Shown here: one piece after another, positions 14,554 to 28,740 of the stretch
How positions within the stretch are numbered: the first letter of the stretch is position 1
How the letters are laid out: each line of letters begins with the position of its first letter
From: Candidatus Jordarchaeia archaeon
GTDB lineage: Archaea; Asgardarchaeota; Jordiarchaeia; Jordiarchaeales; Jordiarchaeaceae
DNA: 29,175 bases
NCBI GenBank assembly: GCA_029856435.1
Contig: JAHQXB010000071.1
Span: 1 to 29,175 of the forward strand
Direction: 5' to 3'
Translations under genes and position numbers: made by a program
The notes under the pieces: generated by a model
Seen by the model: only the letters and a program-made list of their open reading frames with translations
What the model was told of the DNA's origin: nothing
Databases searched by the model: none

Positions 14554-14634
14554 AGGGATTAATACTAATTTGTGTTCGCGAAGGTTGCCGAGGTAGCTCA
14601 GTTGGTAGAGCGTCAGGCTGTTAACTTGATGGTC

Positions 14635-14661
14635 AGGAGCTCTGTTTTAGAATCCCCATAA
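14635..14661 (+). other. tRNA intron 1, 27 nt, position 48/49, strict BHB
   Basis: Central helix ATGG (14629-32)/CCAT (14656-59); bulges TCA and AAG; inner helix GGA/TCC; outer helix CTTG/CAGG. Confidence 0.88.
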
Positions 14662-14672
14662 GCAGGTTCGAG

Positions 14673-23238: not shown

Positions 23239-25670
23239 TCACTTGTCTTCCACCAGTTTCCAGAATTCTACATCATCCATAAAGTTTTTACCTACACGTA
23301 TACGTGTATGCCCTGTAACATTCTCCAATAGTAATTTTTGCTCAATCTTGGCGACCATTTGACGGGTAAATGCAACTGCATCAGGGTTTACGCTAATGCT
23401 GGTGGCGCCCATACGAACTAGAAACTCTAAATAGTCGGGATAGACGCTAGGCGCTTGCCCACAGATAGAAGTGGTCACTCCATACTTTTTACATATTTTA
23501 ATAGTATATGCAATTGCGCGTAGAACTGCCAAATTGCGTTCGTCGTAAAGCTCCTGAACACTAGCATCATTCCTATCTACTCCCAGAATTAGCATTGTTA
23601 GATCATTTGTTCCAAAGCTAACTCCATTTATTCCCTCTTGGCAGAATTTGTCTATCAGCAGTACACTACTTGGGACTTCCACCATAATCCAGATCTGGAA
23701 ATCTGGGTCTTTTTCTGGATCCAGTCCTTCTTCTTTCATAATCTGTTTTGCAATTCTGAAAACTTCTAGGGTTCGGACAAAGGGTAGCATTACCCAAAGA
23801 TTTTTCAATCCATATGTTTCTCTAACCTTTTTTACCGCTCTGCACTCCAGTCGAAAAACATCTGGCTCCTTTACGTATCGGAATTGGCCTCTAAAACCAA
23901 TCATTGGATTCGGGCCAATGTGACCAGCCTCATATTCTCTTCCTCCTTCTAGAGCCAAGAATTCGTCAGGTTTAAAGTCTAGAAAACGGTACACCACTGG
24001 ACCTGGGCTGAAGGCTTCTGCAACTTTTCTTATCCCCTCTGCAAATTTGTCTATCATCTCTTGGTCTCCACCCTCTTCAATAAGTTTTCTTGGGTGTTTT
24101 CCAATGTTTATCATCAAGTGTTCTGCCCTGAGTAATCCAACTCCGTCTGCCTGTGTTTGCTTCGCGACCCTGTCTGCTATTTCAGGAATAGATAGGTTCA
24201 CGTAAATTCTTGTGGCGGTAGGTATTATTCCCGTGCCAGTAATTGTTGCTACAACTTCCTCTTTTGCCTTTTCTAAAACACCCCGGTAAACTAGTCCTCT
24301 TCCACCATCAACGGTTACTTGCCCCTCATTTGCCAAGACAGCAGTTCCCTTTTCAGTTCCCACTATGCAGGGAGTCCCTAGTTCTCTGGATACTATCGCC
24401 GCGTGGCAAGTGTATCCTCCTTCATCAGTTACAATGGCTGCTGCTTTTTTCATAGCGGGAACCCAGTCGGGCGTGGTCATTTTTGTTACTAAAATGTCTC
24501 CTTCCTCTACTTGCCTTATGCCACTAACATCTTTAATAACCTTCACGGGGCCTGACACTATTCCAGGCGATACCCCTAGCCCCCTGAGTATTATTTCGCG
24601 TTCCATGGTGGTTTCCTGCGGGACGGCTTTTGTTGTTTCCATAGTTTCCTGTTTTAAACCATGTACTGTTTCTGGTCTGGATTGTAATATGTATATTTCT
24701 CCACTTTTATCTACTGCCCATTCTATGTCCTGTGGTGTTTTATAGTGGTTTTCTATCTGTTTTCCATACCGCGCAACTTTTTTTATTTCATCATCGGTTA
24801 GAGCGGGGATATTTTGTCTTTCTGGGGGGACTTCTAAGTGTTCGGTTTTTCCAGTCTTAGGATTCAGTTTGTACTCTACTTTTTTGGTTACAACATGTTT
24901 TTCTATTATTTCTAGAGTAGATTTGTCCACTAAGTATGTGTCTGGTGTTATTGCTCCGCTTACGACAGCTTCTCCTAATCCCCAACTGGCTTCTATCATT
25001 ATTTTTGTAGTGTCTCCAGTTGTTGGGTGTAATGTAAACATGACTCCCGCAGATTTCGCATCAACCATAAGTTGGACAGCTACGCTAATTAGCACATCTT
25101 GATGTCTGAATCCTTTTTCTTGCCTATAAGTTATGGCTCTCTTTGTGAATAGGCTACTCCAACATTTTCTTACTGCTTCAAGCAAACCTTCCCTATTAAC
25201 ATTTAGATACGTTTCTTGTTGTCCAGCAAAAGATGCGCCTGGCAATAGAGGAAGAACGGTTAGCCCATCACTTTATCCTCTGCAGAGGCGCTCGACCTGA
25301 CAGCCACTAATGGCTCTTTTTGTTTTACTCTTTTACCTAGTTCATCGTAACTCTCCATTATCGCCTCTGAAATGTCCTCAGGTATTGGTGTAAATTCAAT
25401 AAGGCGCCTAATTTTGTTTGAGGTGTCTTCGAGTTGCTGGAAGTCTTTAATATCGGTTTTTTCCAGCATGTTAAATATCTTAGTTTCTATTTTTGTATCC
25501 TCGAGGAACTTTTTATAGGCATAAGTAGTAACTGAAAAACCTGGTGGAACTGGGACTTTGGCTTTTGTTGTTAATTCACCCAAGTTAGCAGATTTTCCTC
25601 CTACTGCAGCCACATCGCTTTTTCCAACTTCTTCGAACCATAGGATAAACCTTTTTTCACTGGGACTCAT
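23239..25670 (-). CDS. ppsA: Phosphoenolpyruvate synthase (pyruvate, water dikinase); two exons join(25670-25275, 25245-23239), 800 aa if spliced
   Basis: VGGKSANLGEL, VAVRSSASAED|LPGASFAGQQETYLN, EASWGLGEAVVSG, PQDIEWA, LQSRPET, phospho-His TCHAAIVSRELG, GVGLLRAE, MIGFRG, IMVEVPS, SFGTNDLT, ICGQAPS. Removing 25246-25274 fuses the two ORFs in frame. Confidence 0.95.
25246..25274 (-). other. Candidate 29-nt pre-mRNA intron in ppsA with strict bulge-helix-bulge
   Basis: Intron AAAGTGATGGGCTAACCGTTCTTCCTCTA. Central helix GAGG/CCTC, bulges AT^A and TA^T, inner helix AAG/CTT then GATGG/CCGTT, exonic helix GCA/TGC then GCGCCT/AGGCGC. Splicing in vivo is not shown. Confidence 0.88.
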
Positions 25671-25825: not shown

Positions 25826-26272
25826 CTATCTGTTACCTTTAATGTCTCTGAACTTAAAAAGGTGTAGCACTGTTTTTTTATAATTTATAATTTTGTGCGT
25901 AGTATCACGTATATAGAGAGGTTCATTTGTCAGTAATCGAATTATAAGGTCGGCTTGAACTTTTTTTGCTAATTCTAAAAGGGAGGGATGAAGCTCGGGA
26001 GGGGGGCGAATAGAATAAATGAGCGTGCTATTAGTATATATTCCCATACTTGGTGCGGTTATATCGTCGACAACAGTTTTTAAGCCGTGGCAATCGGGTA
26101 TATGCTCTAGGTTGTTAGGTTCTATGTCTGTGACAACAATCTCAGTTTCTGGTAATTTTTCCTTTAGTCCTAGAGCTATTTGGGGAATTCTCCCCACTCC
26201 TATCTCAACAATTTTTCTGGAACCCTTGTAATTACTTGCTATATATTCTATAATATTTTCAGCATCCAACAA
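25826..26272 (-). CDS. UPF0146 family protein
   Basis: KIVEIGVG, VVTDI, DDITAP...Y...LIYSIRPPPEL, A.KV.ADLII. Confidence 0.88.
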   Translation of the reverse strand: MLDAENIIEYIASNYKGSRKIVEIGVGRIPQIALGLKEKLPETEIVVTDIEPNNLEHIPDCHGLKTVVDDITAPSMGIYTNSTLIYSIRPPPELHPSLLELAKKVQADLIIRLLTNEPLYIRDTTHKIINYKKTVLHLFKFRDIKGNR

Positions 26273-26327
26273 ACTGACATCGTTTCTAATTACCTTTTCA
26301 CCTTCAGATAATTTTTCATTAAAATTC

Positions 26328-27564
26328 TCATATGGGAGGTTTAGATAAAGGTATTTTGAGAGAATTCTCTATTCTGAGAAGCTCATTTATCTTGGCCATA
26401 CGCTCTCCTCCCATTATTCCTATTTTAATTATTGGACAATTTAATCCAACTGCGATTTGGGACAAAACAGGATCTGTAGTTTCTCCAGATCTGTGTGAAG
26501 CTATGGGGATGATTTTACTTTTATGGCAGAGATCTACGGTTGATATGGTGTCTGTTAGGGTGCCAACTTGGTTGGGTTTTATTATAGATGACGTTATTGC
26601 ATTTTTTTCTATTGCTGTTTCAAGACGCTTTTTGTTAGTCACTATTAGATCATCGCCAACTATCATGCTGTTTTTTATACTTGCGTTTAGTTTTGCGAAG
26701 TATTCAAAATCCTCTTCTTGAAATGGATCTTCGAGGTATGCTATTTCATAATTGTTTAGAAGGTGTAATAGGTATTCTAAGTGTTGTTCAGAGTTTAATC
26801 TTTTCTTTTCTTTTCTGTAAATATATTGCCCCTTATTAGGGTCCCATAACCTTGATGCCGCGGCGTCTATACCAATTTTTGCTTTTACTCCTGTCTCATC
26901 TTCAACTTTTTCTATTGCTTTAGTTAGTATTTCTAGAGCTTCCTCTATTGTTAGAGGCGCCGCCCATGCGCCTTCATCATTTCTTCCAAGCACATATTTT
27001 GAGTAGGCTTTTAGTATTAGTTCTCCTGTTACTTGGTGGATCGCTAAATTAGTTCTTGCTGCCTCTTCAAATGTTTTGGCTCCTAAAGGCAGGATCAAGA
27101 ACTCCTGAAAATCTATCGAATCCCCTTTTGTGTGCACTCCGCCCCCTATAATGTTGCTCATAGGGAATGGAAGCCTTAGCTTGTTTCCAAGGTATTGACA
27201 TAACATCAGATTTTTACTTTTTGATGCGGTCTTAGCTGTGGCGATGGAAATAGCTATTGCAGCGTTTCCACCGATTCTGCTGAGGTTTTTTGTACCATCG
27301 ATAGTCCATATTGTTCTATCGATTTCTTTTTGCTCTTCAACTTTTATTCCCTTAATTTTGGGTAACAATTCACTGTGTATAATTTGAATTGAGCGTTCCA
27401 CTCCTTCCTTAGGAAAAGCTTGAACTTCGAATTTTCCAACGCTGGCTCCAGATGGAGCGCTGGCAACAGCCTTAAAACCATTGCAATAAAGTGCAACCTC
27501 TATTGTATATTTCCCTCTAGAATCAAGAATCTTGCTTGCAGAAATACGATCTATTACTGGCGAT
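26328..27564 (-). CDS. eno: Enolase (phosphopyruvate hydratase); start codon apparently disrupted
   Basis: Frame is open from 27569: ILDSRG, APSGAS, NIIGGGVH, DFQEF, DEG, IDAAAS, EDPF.EED, VGDDL.VTN, IKPNQVGT, SHRSGET, GERMAKINELLRIE. No in-frame ATG/GTG/TTG upstream of GTG 27401; ATCG at 27564-27561 sits where ATG is expected. Confidence 0.9.
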
Positions 27565-27732
27565 TTTGCTCACCTCTCTTTAAAAGATAGGTCTAAGAAG
27601 ATATAAATAAATCTAATTACAATGATCGCTAAATCGATAGCAAACTTCTTCAGTTAATAAAAAGATGATTGGTTTGAGCGGAATAAAAGATTATTTTGAA
27701 AATAACAATTATTAAAAATTAAAAGTAGGTAA

Positions 27733-28740
27733 ATGATAGAAATGGACTATTTTATGGAGTTAAATAGTATTGAAGCGGAAATTAAAAGGAGGAAAGCACG
27801 AAAAGTTCTACTCCAATTTCCTGAAGGATTACAAAGTTCTGCAGTAAAAATTAGTAAAGCACTTAAATTAGCTACTGGAGCGGAAATAGTAATATCTGCT
27901 GATCCTTGTTGGGGAGGATGCGACCTAGCGGAAACTGCAGCCTTAAAGATTGAAGCGGATCTTTTAGTACATTTTGGTCATTCTCCTTGGCCCAAAAAAC
28001 CTAAAGTTCCTACGTTGTTCGTAGAGGCGCGTTCCGATATAGAAGTTAGAGATGTTGTATTGAGAGCGATAGGCTTTTTAAGTGCCAAGAAAATAGGCAT
28101 TGCAACAACTGTCCAACATATCCATAAATTAAATGAAATAAAAACACTACTCGAAGAAAAAGGATTTGAGGTTTTGGTAGGTAAACCTAGTGGAAGAGCC
28201 AAATACGCAGGGCAAATATTGGGTTGCGATTTGTCTAGCATCGAGAAAATAAATGTCGACCAATTTTTGTTTGTTGGCGGAGGAACTTTTCATCCATTAG
28301 GAATCGCTTTAGCTACGGGTAAGAGGGTCATAGCAGCAGATCCCTTTTCTGGAAAAGTTACTGATATGAGTGAAGAAGCCAAAAGAGTTCTTATGCGGAG
28401 ATACGCTCAGATAGCAAAAGCTAAGAACGTGAAGAGGTTTGGAGTAGTCATAGGTTTGAAGTTTGGACAAATAAATTTAAAATCTGCCAGACAGATTAAA
28501 GAAAAAATTGAAGGCAAAGGGAAGGAGGCCTACTTAATAACCTGCGAGGAAATAAATCCTGAAAGATTTGCGGGACTAGTAGACATAGAAGCACTTGTAA
28601 TAACTGCATGCCCAAGAATTGTAATTGAGGACGGACCTCAGTTTAAAATCCCTGTGGTAACGCCTATGGAACTAGACATTTTGCTTGGCATTAGAAAATG
28701 GGGGGGAATTAAAGATAAAGAAACATTTGGTTACAAATAA
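27733..28740 (+). CDS. dph2: Diphthamide biosynthesis enzyme Dph2 (2-(3-amino-3-carboxypropyl)histidine synthase)
   Basis: LLQFPEGL, PCWGGCD, LVHFGHS, TTVQH, GQILGC, GGGTFH, DPF, KFGQ, TACPRI; the three Fe-S Cys are present. Confidence 0.95.
   Translation: MIEMDYFMELNSIEAEIKRRKARKVLLQFPEGLQSSAVKISKALKLATGAEIVISADPCWGGCDLAETAALKIEADLLVHFGHSPWPKKPKVPTLFVEARSDIEVRDVVLRAIGFLSAKKIGIATTVQHIHKLNEIKTLLEEKGFEVLVGKPSGRAKYAGQILGCDLSSIEKINVDQFLFVGGGTFHPLGIALATGKRVIAADPFSGKVTDMSEEAKRVLMRRYAQIAKAKNVKRFGVVIGLKFGQINLKSARQIKEKIEGKGKEAYLITCEEINPERFAGLVDIEALVITACPRIVIEDGPQFKIPVVTPMELDILLGIRKWGGIKDKETFGYK

Follow-up and report, generated by a model that had tools for sequence, protein, structure and literature searches.

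A probable bulge-helix-bulge intron within the coding sequence of the phosphoenolpyruvate synthase gene of a Jordarchaeia archaeon

The split ppsA gene and the fold at its junction

The ppsA gene, which encodes phosphoenolpyruvate (PEP) synthase, lies in two pieces on the minus strand of contig JAHQXB010000071.1. Positions 1 to 29,175 of this contig are the whole stretch of DNA analyzed here (the window; 29,175 nucleotides, nt), which belongs to a Jordarchaeia/Freyarchaeia (Asgard) metagenome-assembled genome (MAG) of 3.54 Mb in 181 contigs. Open reading frames (ORFs) of 136 amino acids (aa; 25670..25260) and 668 aa (25245..23239) are arranged around a 29-nt insert, and the NCBI annotation gives ppsA as two coding sequences (CDSs). 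An earlier reading of the same DNA from its letters alone (the sequence-only reading) had described this split, with its stop codon and frame shift, and had proposed that the insert is a pre-mRNA intron of the bulge-helix-bulge (BHB) type. We confirmed the coordinates of the two ORFs and the insert.

The upstream part of the gene (exon 1, 25275 to 25670, minus strand) comprises 132 codons from an ATG at 25670 and ends ...VAVRSSASAED; it matches the Pfam profile PPDK_N and a structure in the PDB. The insert follows at 25246 to 25274 on the same strand. It carries an in-frame UAA, so that reading through from exon 1 gives KVMG and then a stop, and, being 3n+2 nt long, it also puts the two parts out of frame. 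The downstream part (exon 2, 23239 to 25245, minus strand) has 668 codons and a stop codon. It opens with LPGASFAGQQETYLNV (LPGASFAGQQ) and carries the remainder of PPDK_N, followed by the Pfam domains PEP-utilizers and PEP-utilizers_C. The phospho-histidine motif TCHAAIVSRELG is readable within it.

Two alignments place the join exactly, to the residue and with no slack. Positions 2 to 113 of the PPDK_N profile fall in exon 1 and positions 114 to 320 in exon 2 (113|114), and in 9dae_A, a solved PEP synthase, residues 17 to 147 align with exon 1 and those from 148 onward with exon 2 (147|148). Cuts after the second base of each bulge in the fold described below would give ...GCA GAG GAU|UUG CCA GGC... 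(A-E-D|L-P-G), restoring the frame and yielding a product of 132 + 668 = 800 aa. This is the E-D-L-P junction and the 800-aa PpsA that the sequence-only reading had derived, and the profile and the structure both agree with it. In the source genome, the joined sequence is predicted to read ...GCAGAGGAU|UUGCCAGGC..., with a junction-spanning tryptic peptide that covers SSASAEDLPGASFAGQQETYLNVNR. When the exons are joined, the PpsA architecture is complete (PPDK_N, the mobile His domain PEP-utilizers and PEP-utilizers_C), and the top PDB matches are PEP synthases. PPDK_N and PEP-utilizers_C were matched by the split ppsA alone, and a profile search of this 97.8%-complete genome found no second PpsA or PPDK gene.

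We folded the minus-strand RNA of window positions 25232 to 25295 without constraints. The minimum free energy (MFE) structure, at -24.9 kcal/mol (z = -3.0, with 1 of 200 shuffles as good), consists from the outside inward of a GCGCCU/AGGCGC stem, a GCA/UGC helix, a 4-bp GAGG/CCUC helix with 3-nt bulges, and an inner helix with a 5-bp hairpin. The strict motif and exon-exon stem drawn in the sequence-only reading were recovered in all their helices and bulges, save for a single isoenergetic slip of 1 nt, in which A25276 instead of A25273 pairs with U25252.

In the central 4-bp helix, GAGG of exon 1 (25277 to 25280) pairs with CCUC of the insert (25248 to 25251). On either side of it, on opposite strands, lie the two 3-nt bulges of an hBHBh' motif, that is, a BHB with flanking helices h and h'. 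The 5' bulge, AUA, occupies 25274 to 25276, with the predicted cut between 25275 and 25274; the 3' bulge, UAU, occupies 25245 to 25247, with the predicted cut between 25246 and 25245. The flanking helices, for which 2 bp would suffice, are longer. The outer helix h has 3 bp and a 6-bp clamp; its 5' half lies in exon 1 (25281 to 25291, with GCA at 25281 to 25283 and the clamp GCGCCU at 25286 to 25291) and its 3' half in exon 2 (25235 to 25244, with UGC at 25242 to 25244 and the clamp AGGCGC at 25235 to 25240). The inner helix h' (25252 to 25273) pairs AAG (25271 to 25273) with CUU (25252 to 25254) and encloses the 5-bp hairpin (25255 to 25269). All of these elements are on the minus strand. The order of helix and then bulge on each strand is, as we take it from tRNA numbering, that of the canonical 37/38 tRNA intron. 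The chance of a strict motif (4-bp helix, with h and h' of at least 3 bp each) at a fixed pair of boundaries in the source genome is about 9e-5. A mobile repeat was considered and rejected, as a blastn-short search of the genome with the intron matched only the intron itself.

Conservation of the insert and a joined form in a congener

Among the order's 11 species genomes, nine contain ppsA, and at all eight readable junctions the insert sits at the same codon boundary, ED|LP. The ninth gene (G010; locus L011, G010:C46) has a run of N at the junction and stands outside our counts. The insert is 29 nt long in the source genome and in G001, G003, and G004, and 30 nt in the closed chromosome G005; in a second family, it is 20 nt in G007, 19 nt in G009, and 18 nt in G006. 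Outside the order, 75 archaeal and bacterial ppsA loci were compared, and every one had a gap of 0 at this site.

The 3-4-3 geometry is present in all eight inserts, and the GAGG/CCUC helix is invariant in seven of the eight relatives. The inner helices are unrelated to each other in sequence (AAG/CUU, GAGAC/GUCUC, GGUU/AGCC, and GAG/UUC). In the alignment of the eight sequences, 97.4% of the pair cells are paired, compared with 44 to 55% when the partners are slid, and at two h' pairs the other family has GC in place of AU, both partners having changed. Presence and covariation among relatives had been proposed as a check when the intron was first suggested, and both came out in its favor.

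The exons take part in the structure as well. Seven of the eight intron-bearing genes have all nine exon-exon pairs and the remaining one has eight, compared with a median of six of nine in 71 intronless ppsA loci, none of which reaches nine. A Thr-to-Ser codon change in the motif SSA[T/S]AED adds to this pairing. Codon choice in the exons is adapted to the fold of the RNA.

Both exons are also under purifying selection. The ratio of nonsynonymous to synonymous substitution rates (dN/dS) is 0.19 to 0.24 for exon 1 and 0.06 to 0.09 for exon 2, at dS values of 0.1 to 1.2; in comparisons across the two families, dS reaches saturation. In the protein collection, judged by lengths alone, all 17 clusters that are 73 to 97% identical to exon 2 are 610 to 671 aa long, and forms of about 800 aa are confined to clusters of no more than 72% identity. 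The most likely history is a single gain of the intron in the order's ancestor (Jordarchaeales/Freyarchaeia), after which it would have drifted in length between 18 and 30 nt while retaining the motif.

A joined form of the gene came to light in a congener. The 90% cluster of the congener's exon-2 protein, which is 84% identical to that of the source genome, includes a member of 802 aa. It is encoded by contig L112 (run SRR28530378; 15,894 nt), and in contig L113 (run SRR28530383; 15,924 nt) ppsA is split into 136 and 670 aa. Over 7,983 nt, the two contigs agree at every base, save for 30 nt that are absent from L112 exactly at GCAGAGGAT|TTGCCAGGC, the junction that the sequence-only reading had predicted. 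The gene for the RNA ligase RtcB behaves in the same way: a contig from run SRR28530379 encodes a 485-aa RtcB and one from SRR28530383 encodes 70 and 425 aa, the difference being 29 nt absent at LPD|AHQGYG plus one mismatch. The flanks of the joined and split forms are thus 100% identical for ppsA and 99.9% identical for rtcB.

All of these are public Logan contigs from sister runs, whose libraries may be of RNA or of DNA; a literature search for the run accessions gave no result. That two genes are joined in runs SRR28530378 and SRR28530379 and split in SRR28530383 is most simply explained if the first two are RNA and the third is DNA. Were the joined forms DNA, the exact match of the deletion to the BHB cut sites would still indicate that a spliced RNA had served as its template. 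The 29-nt rtcB insert of the congener (L115:2639-2667) has one unpaired position in its 4-bp helix and flanking helices of 2 bp. It is nonetheless the insert that is absent from the SRR28530379 contig, and relaxed motifs may therefore also be processed.

The neighbors of ppsA at window positions 25826 to 28740 are a UPF0146 gene and an enolase gene (26328 to 27569, minus strand), with a diphthamide synthase gene on the other strand, and the same order recurs in L113. A PEP-forming and a PEP-using step stand side by side in this neighborhood. We considered whether the enolase gene is broken too and rejected this, as its frame of 413 codons is intact.

Splicing enzymes and other interrupted genes

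The source genome encodes both a splicing endonuclease, EndA, and an RtcB-type ligase. Pfam identified two tRNA_int_endo genes. The product of one (L026; 192 aa, 1178-1756) is most similar to 3p1z_B (E = 3e-45), the catalytic subunit in the heterotetramer of Aeropyrum pernix. It has the Tyr/His/Lys residues, the histidine of its DHAP sequence being the aligned one, and its loop region KPKSPQFTRPL aligns with the A. pernix loop. The product of the other (L027; 197 aa, 1195-1788) has Thr in place of the catalytic His of Methanocaldococcus jannaschii EndA, and we read it from its sequence as a structural subunit. Asgard archaea have been described as possessing (alpha-beta)2 EndA with this loop, which confers a broad substrate range (PMC5829648).

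At least four other, unrelated genes of the genome contain an insert of the same kind: cbf5, rtcB, a porA/korA-like gene, and hypD, all read from the minus strand. The cbf5 insert (L109; C73:22783-22813) is a strict BHB of 31 nt with an h of 5 bp and an h' of 7 bp, located at GHAGTL|DPKVTG; it falls at the motif that carries the catalytic Asp in the TruB family. The rtcB insert (L108; C93:1547-1576) is a BHB of 30 nt that stays in frame and contains a TGA, located at LPD|AHQGYGFPIGG; it falls at a metal-binding motif. RtcB is the ligase expected to join the exons, and with its own gene split, the making of new ligase would need existing ligase. In the second family, RtcB is uninterrupted (483 to 484 aa), and the rtcB insert appears to be confined to the family of the source genome. 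The porA/korA-like gene, for the alpha subunit of a 2-oxoacid:ferredoxin oxidoreductase, has a 33-nt BHB insert (L110; C66:3621-3653), and the POR_N profile begins at its position 17 with the first residue of exon 2. In hypD, the BHB insert is 28 nt long (L111; C136:1384-1411), and the HypD profile begins at position 29 with the first residue of exon 2.

We also scanned the whole genome for strict BHB motifs, which gave 527,948 raw motifs, and then filtered these by ORF joining and codon usage. Counts at the canonical cut positions were barely above those at shifted cuts (66 versus about 50 for introns of 28 to 32 nt with an h' of at least 5 bp). Chance motifs across ordinary gene junctions swamp such a scan. 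It recovered ppsA, cbf5, rtcB, the porA-like gene, and hypD, and it gave no reliable total. Two of its matches in the window, near 26350 and 17271, were rejected, each having the look of a normal boundary between genes, complete with ribosome-binding site and ATG.

Elsewhere in the window, Rfam reported a weak tRNA at 14587 to 14664 on the plus strand (30.2 bits), with poor pairing at the 3' end of the acceptor, and ARAGORN found no tRNA in the window, including this position. This is probably a tRNA gene broken up by an intron, the usual state of such genes in the lineage.

Competing explanations, known systems, and the meaning of the probable intron

We hold it to be highly probable that the 29 nt at 25274 to 25246 are a BHB (tRNA-type) intron that interrupts the coding sequence of the sole PEP synthase gene in this genome. 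Several observations weigh against this reading. The runs with the joined forms could be DNA, leaving room for an intron-less DNA variant, and contigs L112 and L113 have identical ends, as two DNA assemblies would. The 90% protein cluster of the source organism itself holds no joined form, only forms of 668 aa or less. In G005, the central 4-bp helix includes one A.C mismatch, the covariation comes from eight related sequences in which most pairs lie in constrained codons, and the combined BHB and ORF-join scan, with its small excess over the shifted-cut controls, gives no independent proof of a large set of introns.

One rival account has the insert kept in the RNA, polypeptides of 136 aa and about 668 aa forming a split PEP synthase, and the joined contigs coming from a DNA variant that lost the insert. 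A DNA origin of the runs with the joined forms would suit it, as would the matching ends of the two ppsA contigs. Such an account can further point to the TTG, a possible start codon, with which exon 2 opens and to the two CDSs in the public annotation. The break, however, lies inside the invariant motif SSAxAED|LPxASFAGQ of a single domain, and exon 2 of G009 opens with CTG, outside the common start codons. Nor would a split protein call for a strict BHB, for covariation in h', or for exon-exon pairing tuned in this way. Moreover, ppsA and rtcB both lack the insert in SRR28530378 and SRR28530379 and both keep it in SRR28530383, within flanks that are identical or nearly so, and we consider a split protein very unlikely. 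The stop codon and frame shift would equally be expected of a pseudogene broken by a small insertion, but this is improbable in the extreme, given that both frames are open in eight species of two families, with dN/dS values of 0.06 to 0.24 and synonymous sites near saturation, that the inserts vary in length and yet all retain the motif, and that the genome has no other PpsA or PPDK gene that we could find.

A short, stop-containing gap with a hairpin between coding parts that are in register also recalls translational bypassing, in which the ribosome hops over the gap, as on phage T4 gene 60. Here, the take-off and landing codons are unmatched (GAU before the gap, CUA UUG at its end), gaps of 18 to 30 nt whose inner sequences are unrelated suit a motif that an endonuclease recognizes by its structure better than a bypass signal, and the joined form occurs as nucleic acid; we give bypassing hardly any credence. 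The source genome is a MAG in 181 contigs, and so an assembly or sequencing artifact had to be considered. The insert is, however, found in independent assemblies, including the closed, long-read-validated chromosome CP147778 (PMC11291895), as well as in many Logan, JGI, and ENA contigs, which makes an artifact a practically negligible prospect.

If the insert is a BHB intron, expression of ppsA almost certainly depends on splicing of its mRNA by the enzymes that splice tRNA, as the sequence-only reading had proposed. The geometry of the motif and the exact join, the order-wide insert with its covariation, the selection on both exons, the presence of the enzyme genes, and the congener contig with the joined form lead us to infer that removal takes place at the RNA level in the source organism, with EndA and RtcB as the enzymes. 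The pre-mRNA would fold into the hBHBh' motif, held by the long exon-exon stem. A heterotetramer-type EndA, made of the catalytic alpha subunit with its Crenarchaea-type loop and the His-less beta-like subunit, would cut each 3-nt bulge between its second and third nucleotides. RtcB would then join the exons into an mRNA for the 800-aa PpsA and would probably circularize the intron. Unspliced mRNA is predicted to yield only the 136-aa fragment that ends at the intron UAA.

The sequence-only reading went further and supposed that splicing ties pyruvate/PEP metabolism to RNA processing. We found nothing to support this. Inserts of the same type occur in at least four unrelated genes, rtcB among them, and a genome-wide spread of introns therefore fits better than a control device specific to ppsA. 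A regulatory coupling of ppsA splicing to metabolism is speculation.

The ppsA intron is of the same kind as the intron of cbf5, but it is a different intron in a different host gene. As the sequence-only reading had stated, cbf5 is the documented case of an intron in an archaeal protein gene, and in the papers that we searched it is the one gene family with such an intron within its coding sequence (PMC2738675; PMC7714728). Its introns in Crenarchaeota (Desulfurococcales and Sulfolobales; Watanabe 2002; Yokobori 2009; PMC2738675) are 16 to 44 nt long (PMC2738675). In 2020, cbf5 was given as the sole reported BHB intron in archaeal mRNA besides the 5' untranslated region (UTR) case described in the same paper (PMC7714728), and a circular RNA (circRNA) survey in Sulfolobus added no supported mRNA introns. 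The crenarchaeal cbf5 intron, like that of ppsA, is too short to encode anything and occurs in hosts with a heterotetramer-type EndA and many noncanonical tRNA introns. The ppsA intron differs in that its gene encodes an enzyme of central metabolism rather than of RNA modification, that its host belongs to the Asgard phylum, and that its motif is a strict hBHBh' with a 6-bp exon-exon clamp. In Haloferax volcanii, the mRNA of HVO_1309 is likewise processed by the splicing endonuclease, as demonstrated in vitro and by circRNA sequencing (PMC7714728); that 46-nt intron lies in the 5' UTR and is independent of the reading frame, whereas the ppsA intron interrupts the coding sequence.

The noncanonical tRNA introns of Freyarchaeia and Atabeyarchaeia (PMC11291895; bioRxiv 10.64898/2026.10.13.758758) share with the ppsA intron the lineage, the motif, the size class, and presumably the enzymes. 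The intron passages of PMC11291895 put the share of interrupted tRNA genes in these two groups at 92 to 95%. Unlike the case made here, those papers concern tRNA genes alone, as far as their passages on introns go: protein-gene introns are not mentioned in the intron and splicing passages of PMC11291895 or in the searched text of bioRxiv 10.64898/2026.10.13.758758. Our literature search found no paper on mRNA introns in Asgard archaea. Noncanonical tRNA introns could be the background from which mRNA introns arise.

A similar division of labor operates in eukaryotes in the unconventional splicing of XBP1/HAC1 mRNA by IRE1 and RtcB, where a protein endonuclease cuts two RNA structures, RtcB ligates the ends, and the loss of a tiny intron changes the frame. 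The role of RtcB in IRE1-type splicing is mentioned in PMC8718801. The XBP1/HAC1 system differs in using IRE1 and twin stem-loops and in being regulated by stress.

We lean towards a broader view, in which gene expression in Jordarchaeales/Freyarchaeia routinely includes the splicing of mRNA by EndA and RtcB, across many protein genes, rtcB included, with introns gained and lost at the scale of families. On this view, a close relative of eukaryotes would offer a natural system of protein-catalyzed mRNA splicing. The genes so affected would span central metabolism, hydrogenase maturation, and RNA modification. The time scale is suggested by the ppsA intron, which is older than the split between the two families, and by the rtcB intron, which is found in one of them.

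What is new in comparison with cbf5 is the Asgard host, the position of the intron in the only PEP synthase gene, at that enzyme's most conserved motif, and its conservation throughout an order. The annotation of ppsA as two CDSs has a practical side, in that reconstructions of metabolism from these MAGs may get ppsA wrong, along with other genes that appear broken. If our interpretation is right, tRNA-type introns can colonize mRNAs where EndA has a broad specificity, and have done so in the archaeal group closest to eukaryotes. The ppsA intron would then be a tractable case for learning how coupled transcription and translation cope with introns.

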